A DNA stretch of 8,130 nt from a virus (IMGVR_UViG_2537561933_000001:1-8130); one strand, 5' to 3'; counted from the stretch's first letter, positions 1 through 8,130 are shown. Made by a program: numbers and translations. The notes: generated by a model from the sequence alone, not told the origin.

Positions 1-1455
1 TTATTGATTCGACTCATATGCACTCCATTCATCGCATACATGGGAAAAGGTTGATTTCAGGGCTTCGTTATCAATCACAATTCGCTGAAGATTGGCCGTA
101 TTAGCCTGCTGAGATAGAAATCTTTTAGCGTAAAGATCAGGCATATGGCTATTGTGACTCCAACCGCCAAGTAGCCGTAATTCATCCTTGGCTTCATCCA
201 TCAATCCAACGATAGAAAAGTCTATGGCTGCCAAGTGTGAGTTGGCCTTAATTTTTTGAAGTTTATCACGATAAATACGTTGAAGTGTTAAATAAGCCCA
301 AGTATGCCGCGTTATATGAGGCGAGATGCTTTCAATGGCATCATAATATTCATCTTTTTTATATTCAGGATACTGCACACTCATAATGTCATCAATACGG
401 GTAAAGATATCATAGACTGCATGGTATGACAGTGGCGGATGTAGTCTTTGGGTGGAAGTGAACAGAAAACTATGGGAGGCTTGAGGGCGGATTTTATGGA
501 TATATATATTTAGAAAATGAAAGTCCAGTTTATCTAATGCCAGCACCCGGTTTGCATAAACATTTTTTAATGAAGGCAATCTTTTTCGTTGATCCGAAAC
601 GTCGTCATCTACTGTGGTCACAATCAGGCTGAACTGATCCCCTCGGAGATTTGGTTTGATCGAATGACACTCCAAAAGCAGTAATTCACTGACACGCAAT
701 CCGTAATTTAAAAGCAATCTGCAAATCAGAAAATTACGTAGCTGGATTTCACCAGCGGGGAAGGGATTGAGTGGGTTTTTCTTTGAAATTGAACCGGGTG
801 TAATGATTTGGTAAAAAGCCATGACCATCTCAGCAGTCAGACTTCGAAAGCGTTTATGGGTCGTGCCATTGTTCATCTGACGAGAATGGGTAAGAGTACG
901 GAATTCTGCCTTATGTATCGATAAACGTCCCGTTAACTGCGTGGCAAGTCGTGTAAGCTCTTTAGGCGTGCCATCTATATATCTCGGCGAGATATACGTG
1001 TTAATCAAATATCTGATAAAACGAATAACCGAATGTACATGCCTGATATTTGTACAACGTTGAGGCGTGGTCTGCGTAGTAGACCTTATGGTTAACGCTG
1101 GTACATATAAATGCGTATTTTCCAGATAATGAAAAAAGGCTGTAAGTTCATCAATGGCAATCAATGGATTGTGGTTCGAGGAATAGAAACTGAAGCAAAA
1201 AGTCACACCATGTTTCTGGTGCCAGAATTCATAGAAAAACTTGAGCGCTTGAAGTGAAGCGGATTGCGTGGCTGATGAACGCAAAGCAAGATGGTCGATA
1301 AGATATATTAACGGATATAAAAGCGGCTGGCGCGTGTGAGTATCCATCAGTGCCCATAAACGCTGCCGTTGGTTGATATTGAGTTGTGTAAGTATGAACA
1401 CGCGGCACTTAACCTTATCAATGGTGTGGATATGAACAAAGTAACCGACAAACAT
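1..1455 (-). CDS. Tyrosine site-specific recombinase / integrase-family protein (about 484 aa from ATG at 1453-1455; ORF track extends to a TTG at 1465-1467)
   Basis: Complete minus-strand ORF with stop at 1-3 (TAA). Translation contains the tyrosine-recombinase catalytic signature in correct order: box I Arg in 'YGLRVSELLLLE', 'HITRHTW' (HxxRH-like box II), and 'LGGWSHNSHMPDLYAK' (LG[HW]...Y catalytic Tyr region). ATG at 1453-1455 is preceded by AGGA (GCAGGACGTT-ATG). Start codon choice is uncertain. Long N-terminal region (about 250 aa) precedes the catalytic domain. Confidence 0.75.
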   Translation of the reverse strand: MFVGYFVHIHTIDKVKCRVFILTQLNINQRQRLWALMDTHTRQPLLYPLIYLIDHLALRSSATQSASLQALKFFYEFWHQKHGVTFCFSFYSSNHNPLIAIDELTAFFHYLENTHLYVPALTIRSTTQTTPQRCTNIRHVHSVIRFIRYLINTYISPRYIDGTPKELTRLATQLTGRLSIHKAEFRTLTHSRQMNNGTTHKRFRSLTAEMVMAFYQIITPGSISKKNPLNPFPAGEIQLRNFLICRLLLNYGLRVSELLLLECHSIKPNLRGDQFSLIVTTVDDDVSDQRKRLPSLKNVYANRVLALDKLDFHFLNIYIHKIRPQASHSFLFTSTQRLHPPLSYHAVYDIFTRIDDIMSVQYPEYKKDEYYDAIESISPHITRHTWAYLTLQRIYRDKLQKIKANSHLAAIDFSIVGLMDEAKDELRLLGGWSHNSHMPDLYAKRFLSQQANTANLQRIVIDNEALKSTFSHVCDEWSAYESNQ

Positions 1456-1546: not shown

Positions 1547-1574
1547 ATTTAACATAATATACATTATGCGCACC
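1547..1574 (-). other. dif: 28-bp XerC/XerD recombination site dif (chromosome dimer resolution site), here the prophage/chromosome junction
   Basis: Plus strand 1547-1574 reads ATTTAACATAATATACATTATGCGCACC, the exact reverse complement of the canonical E. coli dif sequence GGTGCGCATAA-TGTATA-TTATGTTAAAT (XerC arm, 6-bp centre, XerD arm) as I recall it; 28/28 match. Lies 38 bp beyond the stop of the 77-aa cargo gene and about 90 bp upstream of the recombinase start. Confidence 0.85.
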
Positions 1575-1612
1575 AATGGTAAGGATGGCGGGAACTGGCG
1601 TTACCGGTGCCG

Positions 1613-1846
1613 TCATTGGTCACAGACCGTAATCCACTGGCCCAGGACGTCTTTCAGGCAATGTTGGCATAAATCCAGTTTTAAGCGATTACTGTCACCA
1701 AAAATTGAACCGTATCCAGCTAAGTGATTAACAGACAGAAACTCATTGAACTCAATGTCATCTACCACCGTCTTCGCATGGCGACCACAGCGATCGCAGG
1801 TCTTCGCACATAACATTACAGTATCGCTGGATGTGAAAAATTGCAT
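1613..1846 (-). CDS. Small zinc-ribbon protein (77 aa, two CxxC pairs), function unknown; prophage cargo next to dif
   Basis: ORF with ATG at 1844-1846 preceded by strong RBS (GAGGAGATAAA-ATG). Stop TGA at 1613-1615. Protein has CDRC (C17/C20) and CQHC (C60/C63) plus C13 and C75, consistent with a Zn-ribbon. No confident family assignment from memory. Confidence 0.6.
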   Translation of the reverse strand: MQFFTSSDTVMLCAKTCDRCGRHAKTVVDDIEFNEFLSVNHLAGYGSIFGDSNRLKLDLCQHCLKDVLGQWITVCDQ

Positions 1847-1919
1847 TTTATCTCCTCGTAATGCTGCCGCGCCGAATCAGCAATAACGCTAAAAAAACAG
1901 AATTGTTCGGCTTGGCCAA

Positions 1920-1960
1920 CCCCTGACACTAACAAAAGCAAGTTTTGTCATTGTCCGGGG
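1920..1960. promoter_or_regulatory. Imperfect 18-bp inverted repeat (15/18) around a 5-bp centre; candidate operator or structured RNA element between the two cargo genes
   Basis: CCCCTGACACTAACAAAA-gcaag-TTTTGTCATTGTCCGGGG; arms at 1920-1937 and 1943-1960, centre 1938-1942. Located in the 117-bp gap between the 102-aa gene stop (1964) and the 77-aa gene start (1846). No convincing sigma70 -35/-10 pair found nearby. Confidence 0.35.
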
Positions 1961-1963
1961 TTA

Positions 1964-2272
1964 TCATATAAACCAATAGACCGTCCTTACGCCATTCTGG
2001 TTATCAATAACATAGCCGCATTGTTTCCTTAAAAATTCTTCTGCTAAATCAATGGCTTTTACAGAAATCTCATAAGAAGGAAGTAAAGTGTATCCTTTCC
2101 CTTCACTGGCAGCTGCTTTGATCGCATCCAGAGTATTATCAATCAGTAACAGAGCAAGTGATGCTTCATTTACCTGAGCCGAAGAACTTCTGGCTGCAAG
2201 TGTCATTGTTTTTGCTTCTTCCGCTGTAATCGTTCGTTCTGCCAGAGCAGATAAAATCCCATAAGAATCCAT
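1964..2272 (-). CDS. Hypothetical protein (102 aa), Ala/Leu/Glu-rich, function unknown; prophage cargo downstream of gIV
   Basis: ORF with ATG at 2270-2272 preceded by GGGG (TTGGGGTAACTA-ATG); stop TGA 1964-1966. Same strand as phage genes and sits between gIV and dif. No recognisable motif. Confidence 0.5.
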   Translation of the reverse strand: MDSYGILSALAERTITAEEAKTMTLAARSSSAQVNEASLALLLIDNTLDAIKAAASEGKGYTLLPSYEISVKAIDLAEEFLRKQCGYVIDNQNGVRTVYWFI

Positions 2273-2297
2273 TAGTTACCCCAATCAATAATGTCCA

Positions 2298-2346
2298 TTT
2301 GATGGATAGCGAGCAGGGCTCACGCACCTACCCGCTATCCATCAAA
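2298..2346. repeat. Perfect 14-bp inverted repeat with 21-nt spacer overlapping the gIV stop codon (potential hairpin: packaging-signal-like or termination element)
   Basis: Left arm 2298-2311 TTTGATGGATAGCG; right arm 2333-2346 CGCTATCCATCAAA (exact reverse complement). gIV stop TGA is at 2342-2344 inside the right arm. No U-tract follows on the minus strand, so it is not a canonical intrinsic terminator. Confidence 0.7.
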
Positions 2347-3607
2347 GTGGACGAATGATATGTGCTGTAAGCAAAATATACATAATACGCTGTTCATTGC
2401 TGTCTGCCTTGCTACTGAAAATCCAGCCTATAAGAGGAATTTTACTTATAACTGGAACTGAACGCTCGGCATTGCTGAACGATGAATCGATAAGCCCTCC
2501 CAATAACAACGTCTGACCATCCTTAATCTGGACTGTCGTCTGAATCTGGCGCTGATTAGTAATAATATCGGATGCCTGATCATCATTGCTGATTGAATCA
2601 GCGCGAGTGTCGATAGTCAGAACTAGTTGCCCGTTACCCATGACAACAGGCGTTACCTTGAGAGAAACGCCAACATCATGACGCTCGATAGTCTGAAACG
2701 GATTATTTACCCCGGCAGATTCGCCCGTTACCTTTCCGGTGATAAACGGCACATTCTTACCTACGGAAATGTAACCAGTCTGACCAGACTGAGTAAGAAT
2801 ACGCGGCGTTGAAATCACCTTAGAGCGTGAATTACTCTGGACAGCACGCAGAGACAGCGCCAACACGTTACCATCAAAAATACCAAAAGACCCGCCCGCC
2901 GTAGAAAGAGCGCTACCCAGTGCAGAAGTATTAAAGCCCCCCGCAACCTTATGACCGGATGCAGACCCTGCCGCAAACGATAAATCAACGCCATCAGACA
3001 AGCTGGTTTCAAACATCAGCGACTGAATGAGAACCTGATCGCGGGCAACATCCACAGAATTGATAAAATCGGACAGAACCGGCAGCAGCTCGTCAGGCGC
3101 AGAAACAATCAGCGAGTTATTGCCTGGATAATCCACGACATTACCACCACCATTAGAATCAAGATAAATTTTAATCAGTTGCTGAACATCGGACGATCTA
3201 ACTTTTGTCAGCTTAAAATTTCTGACCGTAAGCGCCACAGGTACTGGCTGGTAAGATGGCTCAGAAGGAAAAGTATCATAAGACTGGTTATCAGAATCAT
3301 CGGAATCCGAAACCATCTGTGAAGGTAATTTAGACGGCAAAGAGACTACCGCAGGATTGCCAGAAAGCATGACAAAACCGTTAGCATTCAGAACAGACTT
3401 AAAGAAATCATCAATATTTGTTGGATTAACATCAGCATTAAATACGGTTACGTTTCCTTTAATATCAGGATTAACAATAACAGGCTTGCCAGTTTTTGAA
3501 GAATACCACTGAACAAATGAGCGAACAGATGAATTATTTAAATTAACAGTTTCAGCAGAAACGCAGAATGAACAGGCAAATAAAAAAGCAACAATAACAG
3601 AGCGCAT
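2342..3607 (-). CDS. IV: Filamentous-phage pIV outer-membrane secretin (virion export channel)
   Basis: Translation aligns along its length with M13 pIV as I recall it (e.g. GGSFGIF.G.VL.LS.RA...NS.SK..S.PRILT.SGQ.G.ISVG.NVPFITG.VTGESA.VNNPFQTIER; C-terminal SKIPLIG..FSS..DSNE). Start placed at ATG 3605-3607 (M32 of the track ORF), which gives a signal peptide MRSVIVAFLFACSFCVSA and is preceded by AGGAG. The track ORF start at 3700 would overlap gI. Confidence 0.95.
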   Translation of the reverse strand: MRSVIVAFLFACSFCVSAETVNLNNSSVRSFVQWYSSKTGKPVIVNPDIKGNVTVFNADVNPTNIDDFFKSVLNANGFVMLSGNPAVVSLPSKLPSQMVSDSDDSDNQSYDTFPSEPSYQPVPVALTVRNFKLTKVRSSDVQQLIKIYLDSNGGGNVVDYPGNNSLIVSAPDELLPVLSDFINSVDVARDQVLIQSLMFETSLSDGVDLSFAAGSASGHKVAGGFNTSALGSALSTAGGSFGIFDGNVLALSLRAVQSNSRSKVISTPRILTQSGQTGYISVGKNVPFITGKVTGESAGVNNPFQTIERHDVGVSLKVTPVVMGNGQLVLTIDTRADSISNDDQASDIITNQRQIQTTVQIKDGQTLLLGGLIDSSFSNAERSVPVISKIPLIGWIFSSKADSNEQRIMYILLTAHIIRPL

Positions 3608-3614
3608 AATAATA

Positions 3615-3989
3615 TTACTCCTGACAGGTAACAGTCTGTAAATAACGGCCTTTTCTAATAACAACACGACAGGCATCTTTAATATCAACGGAATAACCAT
3701 CTTTAATCAAATCAAAATACTGATATTTCATACCTTTTGCATCAACAAACGTAACGGAAACGTCAAAGCCAAGTTGTGAAAAAGAATTAATAGAAAGTCG
3801 GGGTAAGTCACTGGACGAATCAGGCGTTACCGCCCTCGCCTGTTCAGCATAAGCAGATTTAATAGCTGAGATTTCATCAACATTCTTTCCAGACTGGAGC
3901 CAGAAACCAAACGCAAGCCCCAGCGCCAAAAAAGAAAGCATTAATATAAGACGGTTCGATTTGCGAAAATAAATTTTAGTGAGGCGCAT
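3615..3989 (-). CDS. XI: Candidate pXI (in-frame internal start within gI, C-terminal membrane-anchored portion)
   Basis: In-frame ATG at 3987-3989 (M241 of pI) giving MRLTKIYFRKSNRLILMLSFLALGL..., positionally and sequence-wise matching the M13 pXI start (MKLTKIYLKKFSRVLCLAIGF as I recall). Expression is not demonstrable from sequence. Confidence 0.45.
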   Translation of the reverse strand: MRLTKIYFRKSNRLILMLSFLALGLAFGFWLQSGKNVDEISAIKSAYAEQARAVTPDSSSDLPRLSINSFSQLGFDVSVTFVDAKGMKYQYFDLIKDGYSVDIKDACRVVIRKGRYLQTVTCQE

Positions 3990-4709
3990 ATAATAATTAA
4001 ATCCTCTGTGAACAGAAAATTGACCGTGCGTGATAAATGGTGGCAAAAGCGAAAATGCGCCATGAGGATAATTATCTGTGAACGCTTGTTTGGTATTGTA
4101 AGCAGAATAAAGATATTTTCCTGTATATATCCATTTATCAACAGTGATTGAATTAACATTATCACCATATTTGACAATGCCAAAGTGTACCTTTGGTAAA
4201 GAAAATCTCGCCCCTGAAACCAAATTCATAATGGAGCCAACAAAAGGAATGTTTAATTTATCTGAACGGCGACAATAAACAACATGCTCAGCAAGCGCCA
4301 GACGAGCTTGCTTATCCATTATCGAAATATCCTGAATCAAAAATATAATATCCCAGCCTAATTTTCTGGCATGTAAAAACCAGTCAATAACAGGTTGTCT
4401 GTCTTTATCACCCCATGAGCGGGAATTAAACCAAGTACCACATTCATCAAGTACAAGGAGGCCATTACGGGATTCATCGTAAGATGCATTCCCAATACCA
4501 ATAGCAAGTAAATCATTTAATGAAGGCTTGTCAGGAATGCGAATAACGCGCGTTTTTTTCGCATAACGCCCAACCATAGGCATATTATGCAATTTAAGAT
4601 CAAGATTAGTGGCAACAGGACAACCCTTAGCAAGTCTTTCCTGTATTCTGGAAACACTAACAAGTGTCTTGCCTGAGCCTAATTTGCCTGTTACTACATA
4701 AACCGCCAT
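3615..4709 (-). CDS. I: Filamentous-phage pI assembly ATPase (Zot-like, Walker A)
   Basis: N-terminus MAVYVVTGKLGSGKTLVSV... with Walker A GKLGSGKT; long stretches match M13 pI as I recall it (RIPDKPS..DLLAIG.GN.SYDE..NGLLVLDECGTWFN.RSW.DK.RQP.IDWFLHARKLGWDIIFL.QD.SI.DKQAR.ALAE.VVYCRR). ATG 4707-4709 immediately follows gVI stop (TAA 4710-4712). Confidence 0.95.
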   Translation of the reverse strand: MAVYVVTGKLGSGKTLVSVSRIQERLAKGCPVATNLDLKLHNMPMVGRYAKKTRVIRIPDKPSLNDLLAIGIGNASYDESRNGLLVLDECGTWFNSRSWGDKDRQPVIDWFLHARKLGWDIIFLIQDISIMDKQARLALAEHVVYCRRSDKLNIPFVGSIMNLVSGARFSLPKVHFGIVKYGDNVNSITVDKWIYTGKYLYSAYNTKQAFTDNYPHGAFSLLPPFITHGQFSVHRGFNYYMRLTKIYFRKSNRLILMLSFLALGLAFGFWLQSGKNVDEISAIKSAYAEQARAVTPDSSSDLPRLSINSFSQLGFDVSVTFVDAKGMKYQYFDLIKDGYSVDIKDACRVVIRKGRYLQTVTCQE

Positions 4710-5051
4710 TTAAATCACCCTGTTTGCATAATCAAGAAATTTTTGTTTTAAATCGAAAACAAAAACACTGATACGAGTAACCATAATAACGTTAACACAC
4801 GCCTGAAAATGGTCAGGCAATACAGACGCCATTAAATGGGAGAAATCAGCAGGTAAACCGTTATACATGACCTCAGCAAGGTACTGCATTAAAAGCGTAA
4901 CAGTTGTTGTAATTAATGCGACCAATGCAAAGGCGATTAATCCTGTTCTGGTAGCAAGTCGAGCTAAAAAACTCGCCACATAGCCAATAAACAAAGGAAC
5001 AAGACCAATAAGAAAACGCAACAATGCAGGAATACCTAATAATAAAGGCAT
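4710..5051 (-). CDS. VI: Filamentous-phage pVI minor coat protein
   Basis: Hydrophobic 113-aa protein [14 protein letters not shown]... ending ...FVFDLKQKFLDYANRVI, matching M13 pVI (MPVLLGIP.LLRFL ... IFIFDVKQKI). ATG at 5049-5051 overlaps the gIII stop TGA (5051-5053) in TGATG (translational coupling). The track shows a GTG one codon upstream. Confidence 0.9.
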   Translation of the reverse strand: MPLLLGIPALLRFLIGLVPLFIGYVASFLARLATRTGLIAFALVALITTTVTLLMQYLAEVMYNGLPADFSHLMASVLPDHFQACVNVIMVTRISVFVFDLKQKFLDYANRVI

Positions 5052-6256
5052 CACTCACCCCCTTTGCGAAGCAATGAAGTTAAAGAAGTAAAGACATACC
5101 AGAACGTAAGGCAATAAAAAACCCATGAAAGAACATCTTTAATAGTCAGTAATTTATCGCAACCAATATCAATCTGATAAACCTCTCCGGGAAATATAAT
5201 AAAATCAGAGCAGCCGTTACCATTGGGTAAATTAGGCAGCATAGCACCTTTATTTAAAAATGCTTCCCATAAAGCACCGTGAGAATCCTTTTCAATTCCC
5301 AATTCAGAATCAGCTAAAGTAGAAGCGCCATCTAATTCAGAGTCGCCCTTTCCATAACGAGAATCACCACCTGAAGGGTCAGCAAAACGGCCAGCCCCCC
5401 GCGTAAGATTGTTAATGGAATCGTCAAGACGATTTATATTATTCCTGGTTTGTTCATCGGCATTTTTTTTATCATCTGATGAAGTGTCTTTCTCCGTTAA
5501 TTTATCATGAATATCGCTGGCTATTTTGGGTGAAGCACCTTCGATCGCAGACTGAATATCACCTTTAGAAAGACTGGAACCACTAGAGCCACCGCCAGAA
5601 CTACCGCCACCGGACTCACCACCGCCAGACTCACCACCACCATTTTGGGGGGTTGAGGGTTTATCAGAGGGGTCAGCTACAGCACCTGTAGGCTTCCATG
5701 TTGCAGCGCAAACAGTACCATCACCCTGACAAACAATGACACCAGTAGCCTCATATTCACAGCCGTTATAGTAGATATAGCGACCACCATCATATGAATC
5801 AACATTATTAAATACACCTTCTTCTGGCGGCTTCGCTTCACAAATTTCTTCTGGTGTCGGGTCAGTAGGTTTTTCATCAGGAACAGAACGCTGAATATTA
5901 CCAACAATATAAGCCGTTAAAGACCAATATTTATCCTTCTGCCCTGGTGAATCGCTGTAAGTACAATCGCCAGTAAAAACAAGACGGAATTCAGAATCAG
6001 GCCAGATACCCTCATAAGTTGGTTTAATCCGAGTAAATACACTCTGAGCACTGGATTTAGCACCCTGACAAGCGGAGGCCTGCATAGCAGCATCAATATA
6101 GTAAACCGTTATCTTAGAGCCATCCTGATTGGTTATTTGCTTACTTTCAGCATAGGCAGAACTTTGATAAGTGGATTTAGTAATGCTTTCCCATGACTCA
6201 GCATGTGAAAAAGGAGAAATGAGGACAGCGGAAAGAATTAATATTTTCCTTCTCAT
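5051..6256 (-). CDS. III: Filamentous-phage pIII adsorption/minor coat protein (401 aa precursor)
   Basis: Start placed at ATG 6254-6256 giving signal peptide [19 protein letters not shown]. The track ORF start at 6400 lies inside gVIII and is rejected. Contains an N1-like TolA-binding domain motif ([19 protein letters not shown] vs M13 NATGVVVCTGDETQCYGTW), a Gly/Ser-rich linker [20 protein letters not shown], and a C-terminal anchor domain matching M13 ([21 protein letters not shown]...WYVFTSL vs CRPFVFSAGKPYEFSIDCDKI...MYVFSTF). Confidence 0.9.
5573..5641 (-). repeat. Short tandem direct repeats encoding the Gly/Ser-rich pIII interdomain linker
   Basis: Plus strand ...GCCACCGCCAGAACTACCGCCACCGGACTCACCACCGCCAGACTCACCACCACC... 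encodes [20 protein letters not shown] on the minus strand; repeated units about 12-15 nt. Confidence 0.6.
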
Positions 6257-6266
6257 AGTAACCCGC

Positions 6267-6293
6267 TTTAATAAAGGGGCAACGAGTGCCCCT
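6267..6293 (-). terminator. Rho-independent terminator between gVIII and gIII (minus strand)
   Basis: Minus strand reads A-GGGGCA-CTCGT-TGCCCC-T followed by TTTATTAAA: 6-7 bp GC-rich stem (6276-6281 / 6287-6292), 5-nt loop, T-rich tail. Position immediately after the major coat gene matches the strong central terminator of Ff phages. Confidence 0.6.
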
Positions 6294-6302
6294 GAGTGAA
6301 AT

Positions 6303-6545
6303 TCAAACCGCTTTTGAAGAGAATTTTTTGAAAATACGAATGGCAAGCCCAGCGCCAACCACAGCAACAACAACAGGCCATACTTTACCAATGAGATCAT
6401 TTGCCTGAGTCAACAAAGCATCCATTGCCTGACCTGCATAATCAGTACCACCTGTAGCGCCTTCAGCCGCAAAAGAACTTGCAGAAATAAAAAGCGCAGT
6501 TGAAGCCAAAGCAATTTTATATTTAACAGTAGACAGAATTTTCAT
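6303..6545 (-). CDS. VIII: Filamentous-phage pVIII major coat protein (80-aa precursor)
   Basis: Signal peptide [26 protein letters not shown] then mature [54 protein letters not shown]. Very close to the IKe mature coat protein as I recall it ([53 protein letters not shown]) and to the M13 C-terminus KLFKKFTSKAS. RBS GGAG upstream of ATG 6543-6545. Confidence 0.95.
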
Positions 6546-6564
6546 AGGAATAACTCCATTAAGG

Positions 6565-6660
6565 TTACATTAATCGGTCAGAAAATGATTTAAATGAACC
6601 GACCGCATAGAAAAGGGCAAAACCAAAGGTATAAGCCCCGAAGAAATAAACGATATACAT
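6565..6660 (-). CDS. IX: pIX-like small minor coat protein (31 aa)
   Basis: ATG at 6658-6660 overlaps the gVII stop (TAATG). Hydrophobic product MYIVYFFGAYTFGFALFYAVGSFKSFSDRLM resembles M13 pIX in size, hydrophobicity and C-terminus (..FTRLM..). It is the C-terminal part of the 74-aa track ORF, whose upstream part overlaps gV and is rejected. Confidence 0.7.
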   Translation of the reverse strand: MYIVYFFGAYTFGFALFYAVGSFKSFSDRLM

Positions 6661-6746
6661 TAACGAAAGACCCCCGCAGTAATCGCGCCGAGGCCAAAAG
6701 AAATAACGATGCCAGACGCTATCAAAATTTGAATAACATCGTCCAT
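6660..6746 (-). CDS. VII: pVII-like small minor coat protein (28 aa); not in the ORF track
   Basis: Manually translated: ATG 6744-6746, 2 nt after gV stop, giving MDDVIQILIASGIVISFGLGAITAGVFR, stop TAA 6660-6662. Resembles M13 pVII (..MIQISVVLCFALGIIAGGQR). RBS-like AAAGG 6 nt upstream. Confidence 0.75.
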   Translation of the reverse strand: MDDVIQILIASGIVISFGLGAITAGVFR

Positions 6747-6748
6747 AT

Positions 6749-7066
6749 TTAACCTTTGATCTCTGCGATGCCACCATCGGAAGCAACATTATAAGTTACA
6801 CCTTCCCTACCCTCCATTGACCACGCACGGACATAGACAGGAATTTGAACTAATTTCCCAATGAAAGCATTCGCCTGGTTCATTAGACCTGCGTTAACGA
6901 GAGCCTGAGAAACTCGAATAATAATTTGATCCTGCTTTGTACCACCAAAACCATCAGGTATTTCAAGGCCAATACCAATTTCATTATAATAGCCCTGACC
7001 ATTAACTTTATTACGTTGGCGGGCTCCCAACATTTTACCCTTAACGAAAAGACCATAATTAGACAT
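6749..7066 (-). CDS. Putative ssDNA-binding protein (gV position), 105 aa
   Basis: Assignment by synteny (between gII and gVII) and size. ATG 7064-7066 preceded by AAAGGAAAG. Sequence is not obviously similar to M13/IKe pV from memory, so the function is positional inference. Confidence 0.55.
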   Translation of the reverse strand: MSNYGLFVKGKMLGARQRNKVNGQGYYNEIGIGLEIPDGFGGTKQDQIIIRVSQALVNAGLMNQANAFIGKLVQIPVYVRAWSMEGREGVTYNVASDGGIAEIKG

Positions 7067-7077
7067 ATTACTTTCCT

Positions 7078-7440
7078 TTAATGCCAGCTACTGGCGTGCG
7101 AAATACGGTTGTAATCGAAAATAAAACCTTTCTCATAAATCCATAAGGGGATTTCCGCTGGCTTGGCTTCCAGCGTTCTTATTAGCGGAACAACGTTATT
7201 AGAGTCTGGTGAATCACAATAGAAATTAATATCGATACCGAACGAAAGCAATTCTCTTCTATGGCGATAAAAAGTGTTATGAGGTAACATTTCTTTCATG
7301 TTAGCCCCTTGTTTCCAAAGTAAATAAGTTGACTGTATTTTTCTTGGCAGTTTCGTTATTTTTTCATCACTTAAAATAGCATTCTGATTCATTTCTATTC
7401 TCCCTACATATTCAGAGAATAATTGACGTGGTGTTTTCAT
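7078..7440 (-). CDS. Candidate pX (in-frame internal start within gII, C-terminal 120 aa)
   Basis: In-frame ATG at 7438-7440 (M231 of the gII product) gives a C-terminal product of similar size to Ff pX (111 aa). Only a weak RBS-like GGAA upstream. Purely by analogy with Ff gene X. Confidence 0.3.
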   Translation of the reverse strand: MKTPRQLFSEYVGRIEMNQNAILSDEKITKLPRKIQSTYLLWKQGANMKEMLPHNTFYRHRRELLSFGIDINFYCDSPDSNNVVPLIRTLEAKPAEIPLWIYEKGFIFDYNRISHASSWH

Positions 7441-8130
7441 ATTCCAGTTAGCGCCAAGCGTTAAATTTAAATCAATAAGCTCAGTTGTTCTTAATGTTAA
7501 TTCAATACGTAATTTATCTTTCGTCCAGTCCAGTAACCCGGCTCGTACAAACTCTTCGGCTATCTGGTGCCCTTTTTTACCAGAAACGTGTTCATCATAT
7601 TTTGAATAAAATTTTAGACTCCATCGACGGGAGTTTTTACCTAAATAAACTGTACCGCCTTTCCCACATGCGCGACCATGGCGTGTTTTAGCTTTAAATT
7701 CGGCGGCATAAAGCCATGATCTGACATTTTCCAGCGTAGATAATGAATACATGTAATTAATGTCAATACGTGAAATTTTATACTGACCTGCCATAACGGC
7801 TTTATAAGACGCTAAATCATGAGGAATATTCAATAAGGATAAAATCCTGGCATAGACCGTCAACATGAGCCCTTGTATATCATCCGACCCAACAACAGAA
7901 TGCCCCTGCAGAAACTTGGAAGGATTACCATCAATGTACAAATGTGTCGCTTTACCTTCGCCATTAGATCCTATCGATCGTACTTTCATCGTTGCTTCAT
8001 GCGAGCCGCGAACAGTCAGTCGCTTAACGGTTTCCCACTCAATTGCACCGTCAGCATCAACGCTGACAACACTCCCCGCCGGAAGCGGTTTGTGTGTGCA
8101 AGGGAAAATCCCGGTAAGCCAATCGATCAC
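7078..8130 (-). CDS. II: Replication initiation protein (gII-like rolling-circle initiator); begins at GTG exactly at the window edge
   Basis: 350-aa ORF at the gII position, directly upstream of gV. N-terminus MIDWL... resembles M13 pII N-terminus (MIDML...) as I recall it. Start codon GTG at 8128-8130 coincides with the window end, so an upstream extension or RBS cannot be checked. Stop TAA 7078-7080. Confidence 0.8.
   Translation of the reverse strand: MIDWLTGIFPCTHKPLPAGSVVSVDADGAIEWETVKRLTVRGSHEATMKVRSIGSNGEGKATHLYIDGNPSKFLQGHSVVGSDDIQGLMLTVYARILSLLNIPHDLASYKAVMAGQYKISRIDINYMYSLSTLENVRSWLYAAEFKAKTRHGRACGKGGTVYLGKNSRRWSLKFYSKYDEHVSGKKGHQIAEEFVRAGLLDWTKDKLRIELTLRTTELIDLNLTLGANWNMKTPRQLFSEYVGRIEMNQNAILSDEKITKLPRKIQSTYLLWKQGANMKEMLPHNTFYRHRRELLSFGIDINFYCDSPDSNNVVPLIRTLEAKPAEIPLWIYEKGFIFDYNRISHASSWH

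Follow-up and report, generated by a model that had tools for sequence, protein, structure and literature searches.

A UPΦ901-type, Lineavirus-like filamentous prophage at the dif site of Escherichia coli

The DNA stretch IMGVR_UViG_2537561933_000001:1-8130 (8,130 nucleotides (nt), hereafter the window) carries the genes of a filamentous phage next to a copy of dif, and the question raised by this locus is whether a relative of the non-integrating Ff and IKe phages resides here as a prophage, by what route it entered the chromosome, and whether such a phage is new. An earlier note on this DNA had proposed a temperate, dif-integrated relative of IKe and Ff with added cargo, and this proposal is supported by the protein identities, the dif site, the tandem copies and the circular copy described below. 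Positions 1547-8130 are very probably the 3' four-fifths of a prophage of the UPΦ901 type (a "UPΦ virus"), Lineavirus-like and located at the dif site of Escherichia coli. The observation is correct but not new, since the phage group, including its borrowed replication genes, was described in 2020 (Shapiro & Putonti 2020, Virus Evolution 6:veaa030; PMC7307601). The suggested novelty had to be given up: integration at dif and the same set of genes have already been described for the closest relatives (UPΦ901; PMC7307601), and as a discovery the locus carries little weight, a temperate dif-integrating relative of IKe and I2-2 with a YpfΦ-type replication module having been published in that year. 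The additions made here are small: a CTX-type attP nearly identical to that of YpfΦ, conserved non-coding elements, an episomal Salmonella record, and the separation from CUS-1 in E. coli genomes.

The minus strand of 1547-8130 carries a complete Ff-type gene set (gII/X, the gV-position gene, gVII, gIX, gVIII, gIII, gVI, gI/XI and gIV), whose order is identical to that of IKe and I2-2. Every substantial open reading frame (ORF) lies on this strand, the genes are tightly packed or overlapping as in Ff, and the window's eleven core reading frames are all intact. The Ff/IKe-like structural core that had been read from the sequence was recovered with all its named genes, by Pfam and PHROG matches:

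7078-8130, minus strand: gII, rolling-circle replication initiator (PF05144 and PF05155, E 5e-71; TIGR01629)
6749-7066, minus strand: gV-position gene, putative single-stranded DNA (ssDNA)-binding protein (PF17426 "Putative_G5P", E 8e-51)
6660-6746, minus strand: gVII, minor coat protein of 28 amino acids (aa) (phrog_19107; "tail virion protein G7P-2" in RefSeq copies)
6565-6660, minus strand: gIX, minor coat protein of 31 aa (phrog_28333)
6303-6545, minus strand: gVIII, major coat protein precursor (PF19199)
5051-6256, minus strand: gIII, attachment protein (PF21443 at residues 23-126, PF05357 at residues 136-177)
4710-5051, minus strand: gVI, minor coat protein (DUF5455 / phrog_1944)
3615-4709, minus strand: gI, Zot-family assembly ATPase (PF05707, E 6e-41)
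2342-3607, minus strand: gIV, outer-membrane secretin for virion export (PF00263, PF21305, PF03958)
1964-2272, minus strand: orf102, one of the UPΦ-specific genes h1/h2 (phrog_4115, unknown function)
1613-1846, minus strand: orf77, the other UPΦ-specific h1/h2 gene (phrog_5435, unknown function)

The start of gIX overlaps the stop of gVII by one base. Two nested genes are likely from their sequence context: a gene X start at Met247 of gII (ATG at 7392), where phrog_17464 (gene X type) matches gII residues 247-346 and a GGGAG motif lies upstream, and an internal in-frame pXI start at Met241 of gI (ATG at 3989), with a GAGGA motif upstream and a transmembrane segment after it. The gIII domain order is of IKe type: pilus-binding domain, TolA-binding domain, Gly-rich linker and C-terminal anchor. 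The range first given for the prophage, 2342-8130, lies inside it but is too narrow, as 1547-2341, with two ORFs, cis elements and dif, belongs to it too; nor does the prophage end at 8130, but runs on to cargo genes and a second att site, as in the near-identical loci L001 (strain KFu015) and L002 (strain UM146).

The virion and export proteins are of the Lineavirus (I2-2/IKe) type. In nucleotide alignments, coverage of about half of the query was reached by Lineavirus phages only (66-69% identity over 52-58%). The element is collinear with them, and its morphogenesis proteins are overall 50-77% identical to those of IKe, I2-2 and PEar6 (Lineavirus) and 35-54% identical to those of M13:

pIV: 71-77% to IKe/I2-2/PEar6, 50% to M13, 27% to the YpfΦ secretin
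pI: 65-66% to IKe/I2-2/PEar6, 54% to M13
pVI: 52-56% to IKe/I2-2/PEar6, 35% to M13
pIII: about 50% over the full length to IKe and I2-2; to M13 in the N1-like domain and the anchor only
pVIII: 63% to IKe, 65% to PEar6, 55% to I2-2, 46% to M13
pVII: 70-74% to IKe/I2-2/PEar6, no match to M13
pIX: 53-60% to IKe/I2-2/PEar6, no match to M13

The coat protein, which had been called near-identical to that of IKe, is indeed of IKe type, but at 63% the near-identity does not hold, and only the C-terminal FKKFSSKAV is identical to that of IKe pVIII. The Lineavirus phages I2-2, IKe and PEar (Inoviridae) also share the IKe-type g3p domain order and the packaging hairpin after gIV, but they are episomal only and lack a dif-like attP, h1/h2 and reverse-oriented cargo genes. 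With Ff (M13, fd, f1; genus Inovirus) the element has in common the gene order and the families of gII, gVIII, gIII (TolA-binding domain and anchor), gVI, gI and gIV; in contrast, gVII, gIX and gV are not detectably similar, the order of the g3p domains is swapped, and Ff phages are F-pilus specific and non-integrating. Neither an Ff-type gV nor close identity to M13, fd or f1 was found in the window; of the proposed Ff relationship the shared families stand, and the nearest relatives are I2-2, IKe and PEar rather than Ff proper.

The replication module had been suspected to be further from Ff/IKe than the morphogenesis module, pointing to mosaicism, and the per-gene protein identities bear this out. 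The gII protein is 87% identical to that of YpfΦ, 56% to that of I2-2 and 24% to that of IKe (21-24% across IKe, PEar6 and M13). The gV-position protein is 93% identical to that of YpfΦ and 39% to gV of I2-2, while no match was obtained with gV of IKe, M13 or If1; judged by its sequence, it is of the I2-2/YpfΦ type and not of the Ff/IKe type. Among the Lineavirus phages, only I2-2 resembles the element in the type of gII and gV and in a 34-nt origin-like element (94%), whereas IKe and PEar have a gV of unrelated type and a gII at 21-24%.

This combination of genes is that of the UPΦ viruses. UPΦ901 was described as a tandem prophage at dif in urinary E. coli, closest to the non-integrating Lineavirus phages I2-2 and IKe and with the same gene order, its gII and gV being >85% identical to those of YpfΦ and its other genes unrelated (PMC7307601). 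The group, tentatively placed in Lineavirus by its authors, was reported from >200 genomes of E. coli, Salmonella, Klebsiella, Citrobacter and Y. enterocolitica; its members carry variable reverse-oriented ORFs (h3-h5) across dif and a variable number of g3p GGGES repeats, and UPΦ901 lysogens release DNase-protected phage DNA, as evidenced by polymerase chain reaction (PMC7307601). All the published traits are reproduced in the window or in near-identical copies. The nine UPΦ-defining core genes (I, II, III, IV, V, VI, VIII, h1 and h2) are all present and intact, h1/h2 being equated with orf102/orf77 by position (the intergenic region in I2-2/IKe) and by the published primer IntCheck_RV, which lies inside orf102. 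UPΦ viruses are set apart by gII and gV >85% identical to those of YpfΦ with the rest <30% or unrelated, and here the values are 87% and 93%, with gIV at 27% and no match for the others. Further shared traits are the integration at dif, often in tandem, the genes I-X plus h1/h2, the GGGES polymorphism, the same host range group, and about 70% identity to I2-2/IKe for the covered genes, with >85% to YpfΦ in gII and gV only.

The published primers agree with this assignment: UPphi_shortFW matches exactly at 5657, in gIII, IntCheck_RV matches exactly at 2226-2245, and UPphi_shortRV, with two mismatches, matches in 18 of 20 positions at 6107-6126. IntCheck_FW, the primer for the host flank, has its site in UM146 but not in the window, because a different island adjoins dif here. 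The window proteins are 99-100% identical to those of the copies in UM146, KFu015 and the contig L003 (JARKOR010000214.1), the gIII repeat number excepted: between the window g3p and those of UM146 and KFu015, 25-29 residues of GGGES repeats differ, plus R2K in KFu015. The window copy departs from the described UPΦ viruses in no substantive respect: it adjoins an integrase island instead of the usual host flank, its Gly-rich linker is shorter, with two GGGES units, and in KFu015, the complete genome closest to it, the cargo consists of h3 and a Fic/Doc toxin, against h3-h5.

How did the element enter dif? On the gIV-h1-h2 side, at its 3' end, the prophage meets the host:

1547-1574, minus strand: perfect E. 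coli dif, 28 bp, GGTGCGCATAATGTATATTATGTTAAAT (28/28 exact, 0 expected by chance)

In the coding-strand reading, dif has the XerC arm plus TGTA (1574-1560) in common with the phage attP, the rest of the site, TATTATGTTAAAT, belonging to the host. Alignment of other E. coli copies with the window starts at 1546/1547, and the reading of the locus as integrated and dif-associated is borne out by this start of homology at the perfect site. At the far end of the prophage and at the junctions between tandem copies, the near-identical loci (L001, L002, L003) carry instead a degenerate site, GGTGCGCATAATGTACGACTCGTTATGT, which matches dif only in its first 15 nt. In a circular copy from Salmonella (L017), GGTGCGCATAATGTA followed by CGACTCG... 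stands in place of the host half of dif, and the predicted circular junction runs from the end of orf77 through GGTGCGCATAATGTACGACTCG into the cargo. On the coding (+) strand of the circular form and of the tandem junctions, the att region reads GGTGCGCATAA-TGTACGACTCG-TTATGTTGAAA, then a GC-rich stem-loop, and after it CTTTAGCATAA-CGTCA-TTGTGCGAACC. The attP thus read consists of two dif-like sites in inverted relative orientation (read in L001 and L017, the window containing no more than its first 15 nt), the first being composed of a XerC arm, 11 nt and the XerD-like arm TTATGTTGAAA. As ssDNA it folds in prediction into one long hairpin (-30.2 kcal/mol, z = -7.1), which pairs both XerC-like arms and both XerD-like arms around an internal bulge. 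Over 96 nt this attP is 99% identical to the YpfΦ junction, for which a CTXφ-like hairpin substrate of XerCD has been proposed in a review (PMC4266046).

Between the two att sites of the UM146, KFu015 and Salmonella copies no phage-encoded recombinase was found. The integrase gene that neighbours dif in the window (1-1401) was considered for this role and rejected, as it lies on the host side of dif, occurs at dif in genomes without UPΦ, and also adjoins a CUS-1-like phage in the enterotoxigenic E. coli (ETEC) strain M9682-C1. A tRNA scan of the window found none, and the element is therefore not a tRNA-targeting integrase prophage. Because of the inverted dif-like sites, their stable fold, the likeness to the YpfΦ junction and the lack of a phage recombinase, the element probably integrated by way of a CTX-type attP hairpin on which XerCD acted. 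The two inverted sites would form this hairpin in the (+) single strand that is packaged, and the host XerC/XerD would treat it as a partner of dif; XerC would exchange a single pair of strands inside the 15 nt that both have in common (XerC arm plus TGTA), after which the insertion would be fixed by replication. The perfect dif would thereby come to lie at the 3' (gIV-h1-h2) end, and the hybrid site GGTGCGCATAATGTACGACTCGTTATGT at the opposite, gII/cargo end as well as at the junctions of tandem copies. Virions or the replicative form (RF) would be regenerated from tandem copies through gII-driven rolling-circle replication, and extrusion would proceed via pI/pXI and pIV, without lysis. We infer in particular the single-stranded route with exchange by XerC only, the role of the tandem copies in phage production, and the origin assignments made below.

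The model for this scheme is the CTXφ type of integrative mobile element exploiting Xer (IMEX), with which the element shares the lack of a phage recombinase, the two inverted dif-like sites predicted to fold in (+) ssDNA, the flanking dif and hybrid sites with an intact dif regenerated on one side only, and the tandem arrays. It differs from CTXφ in having no sequence relationship to it, in that no RstR/RstC or toxin genes were seen, and in that the Xer mechanism is here deduced. The strongest competing route, to which we would still allow a minor share of the probability, is integration from the double-stranded RF, as in VGJφ-type IMEX, and not from the folded (+) strand. In VGJφ-type elements a XerC arm together with identity to dif in the central region could be enough for XerC to exchange strands on duplex DNA; both are present in the first attP site, whose XerC arm is perfect and whose central region agrees with dif in 4 nt, and circular duplex copies do exist. 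Two features speak for the hairpin instead: in the duplex the XerD-like arm TTATGTTGAAA stands 11 nt from the XerC arm, as opposed to 6 nt, and a duplex substrate would have no need of the second inverted site and the stem-loop, which form the stable hairpin and in which UPΦ and YpfΦ are 99% identical.

Copies of the element are widespread. In about 47 of 5,426 complete E. coli genomes, a chromosomal match covers at least 80% of the window at 99.4-99.7% identity, and in nearly all of the 47 this match begins at 1546/1547, that is, at dif. In the terminus region of UM146, the prophage is bordered by the ydeQRS/fimA side and by hipBA, and in KFu015 two copies follow each other in tandem at a period of 7,974 bp. 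A circular Salmonella enterica record of 7,938 bp (L017, NZ_CP140410.1), which was submitted as a plasmid without a name, agrees with the window at 99.5% identity throughout the phage part and has a reconstituted attP and no perfect dif; it is a complete episomal UPΦ genome, and the circular junction whose detection had been put forward as a check is seen in it. Its cargo is a gene for a toxin of the Fic/Doc family, and the same Doc takes the place of h4/h5 in KFu015 (L001 16710-17444).

Some further records are harder to read. In the urine isolate EC5502 (L018, NZ_CP092647.1 4916732-4963351), 16 places match the window, and at least four head-to-tail UPΦ copies, many with frameshift annotations, stand in a 46-kb view; either a very long array of tandem copies at dif or an artefact of long-read assembly may lie behind this. 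A 385-kb E. coli "plasmid" from another urine isolate (H109, NZ_CP141085.1 343726-350278) has two UPΦ places at 99.3%, which could mean that the phage has integrated into a large plasmid or that a fragment of chromosome has been mislabelled. In the UM146 assembly (L002 ~16416-17825), many N bases occur just past the degenerate att site and in hipA, and the readable bases of this stretch resemble the orf77 end of the phage, which suggests collapsed or heterogeneous tandem copies. Two metagenome-assembled genomes (MAGs) carry related sequence under unexpected names: the contig L003, binned as "Candidatus Nanosynbacter", has the full UPΦ gene set (99-100% protein identity) and a perfect E. coli dif, and one binned as "Aerococcus" (L007, JAUMZL010000036.1) matches gII (86%) and gV (64%) only. 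Both labels probably reflect binning contamination and not a real host range.

Several points weigh against an active, Xer-integrated UPΦ901-type prophage. The probable identity with UPΦ901, the prophage of UMB0901, is drawn from primers, traits and near-identical copies, and both the dependence on Xer and the ssDNA route in UPΦ are predictions. The window ends at the gII start codon, so that the second att site, the cargo and the putative (+) origin are seen only in L001, L002 and L017. In the laboratory, the authors of the UPΦ study did not obtain new infections or integrations (PMC7307601).

That the window copy is a domesticated or cryptic remnant which no longer makes virions nevertheless appears improbable. 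UPΦ901 gave no new infections or plaques and a C. koseri lysogen released no phage, according to the UPΦ study, but four lysogens shed DNase-protected phage DNA in the same study (PMC7307601). Some chromosomal copies do carry insertion sequences or frameshifts, and neither a tandem partner nor the (+) origin is visible in the window; against this stand the intact core reading frames, their near-identity at the protein level (99-100%) to widespread copies, and the existence of the free 7,938-bp circle.

Much less probable still is that the element is the classical CUS-1/YpfΦ dif prophage of extraintestinal pathogenic E. coli and Yersinia pestis. The likeness is real: the dif locus is the same, gII and the gV-position protein are 87% and 93% identical, the attP hairpin is shared at 99% over 96 nt, and CUS-1-like prophages are common in E. 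coli, with 85 complete genomes at 99.5-99.7% to YpfΦ. CUS-1/YpfΦ (Gonzalez 2002; Derbise 2007; PMC4266046) is also found in tandem at dif; its overall layout, in which orphan ORFs stand at either end, is the same, and the two phages have conserved short non-coding elements in common. Nonetheless, when the YpfΦ locus (L005) was compared gene by gene, it matched the window in gII and gV only, and the identity was rejected. The gVII, gIX, gVIII, gIII, gVI and gI of the window find nothing in L005, the secretin gIV is 27% identical, the orphan ORFs are unrelated, and nucleotide alignment is confined to gII-gV (80%), attP and two short non-coding segments. The nucleotide identity of about 99% over the 7.1-kb regulation, replication and assembly region that would be expected of a CUS-1/YpfΦ phage is not seen in the element. 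The UPΦ paper draws the same conclusion (PMC7307601). Of the comparators first suggested, CUS-1 and YpfΦ are thus relevant for gII, gV, attP and short cis elements, the structural core not being shared. In a megablast of YpfΦ against E. coli, the 85 complete genomes with a true CUS-1-like prophage formed a population separate from UPΦ, and in Y. pestis (L005) YpfΦ occurs in tandem with a period of 8,742 bp, in agreement with the published 8.7-kb genome. For annotation, windows such as this one are best labelled "UPΦ-type Lineavirus-like prophage at dif", as distinct from CUS-1/YpfΦ at the same site in other E. coli. Finally, a free phage, RF or assembly chimera in place of an integrated prophage can practically be dismissed, for although episomal circular copies exist, these have no perfect dif, and the window reads through into the host half of dif and then into a dif-adjacent chromosomal island of about 138 complete E. 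coli genomes.

The non-coding parts of the UPΦ-type prophage contain several predicted structures:

6270-6292, minus strand: GC-rich hairpin GGGGCA...TGCCCC followed by TTTATT (read from the sequence, present in the centroid fold)
2295-2350, minus strand: long hairpin overlapping the gIV stop (ssDNA fold -21.8 kcal/mol, z = -7.15)
1860-1965, minus strand: non-coding spacer between orf102 and orf77, with two adjacent hairpins, about 106 nt (ssDNA fold z = -3.5)

The first lies between gVIII and gIII, at the position of the Ff gVIII terminator, and is a candidate terminator. The second contains an inverted repeat (2298-2317 / 2327-2346) and is 87% identical over 30 nt to I2-2 2281-2310, within the annotated morphogenetic signal (2260-2330), to which it would be homologous in sequence and position as a packaging signal. 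The spacer is 86% identical to YpfΦ at the nucleotide level over 106 nt, and because it is conserved between ORFs that bear no relation to their YpfΦ counterparts, it is a candidate cis element and perhaps a minus-strand origin. Outside the window, an origin-like hairpin element upstream of h3, at unit positions 945-1000 in L001, is conserved with YpfΦ and 94% identical over 34 nt to the intergenic region of I2-2, which makes it a candidate (+) origin for gII. An Rfam scan of the window matched no family, and a scan with consensus promoters and terminators was uninformative, finding fewer promoter-like sites than in shuffled controls and missing the hairpin between gVIII and gIII.

The two ORFs downstream of gIV have few relatives. 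Among 5.8 billion proteins, homologues of orf77 fall into 14 clusters and those of orf102 into 10, all in enterobacterial contexts. Neither had an informative family in Pfam, NCBIfam or PHROGs, and neither is similar to the YpfΦ ORFs at the same position. AlphaFold2 models were weak (pLDDT 64 for orf77 and 73 for orf102), and Foldseek searches of these models against the PDB gave no match with E < 0.1. The alignment of orf77 homologues has the conserved motifs CxxC ... GYGSxFGDG ... CQHC, suggestive of a possible zinc ribbon; orf77 is unrelated to ECs_2282, a zinc-binding cargo protein of UM146. The 2020 paper likewise gives the function of h1/h2 as unknown (PMC7307601).

Replication genes of this type also occur elsewhere. 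A gII at 87-94% identity was found in Brenneria alni (L004), Klebsiella spallanzanii (L006) and Phytobacter (L008 and L009), without Lineavirus-like structural genes, and a gV at 86-94% in L004, L006 and L008; the L006 and L008 loci contain a perfect dif, and the Phytobacter locus L008 an orf77 homologue (79%). Since gII, in three of these four loci together with gV, occurs without Lineavirus-like structural genes, the replication module circulates on several virion backbones. Tentatively, and with more doubt than confidence, we propose that UPΦ and YpfΦ share a portable "replication-integration backbone" which has been recombined onto two unrelated virion modules. Its parts may be the attP hairpin, the origin-like hairpin (also in I2-2), gII/X, the PF17426 gV and the hairpin pair at 1860-1965. 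If so, h1/h2 might encode a new function, in lysogeny, in superinfection or in modifying the host. The 2020 paper notes that gII and gV are shared with YpfΦ; in the part of its text cited here, the cis elements are not mentioned (PMC7307601).

To the left of dif, and outside the phage, the window carries a tyrosine-recombinase gene (1-1401, minus strand, 466 aa). In KFu015 (L001 3670-9401), this 466-aa integrase is the first gene of a four-gene operon, followed by a 516-aa integrase, a 788-aa protein without a Pfam match and a 144-aa protein, an arrangement similar to that of ginABCD in GInt genomic islands (PMC5385486). Only 145 bp separate dif from the start of this four-gene operon. The island sequence adjoins dif in about 138 complete E. 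coli genomes, in some together with UPΦ, in ETEC M9682-C1 with a CUS-1-like phage, and presumably in others with neither.

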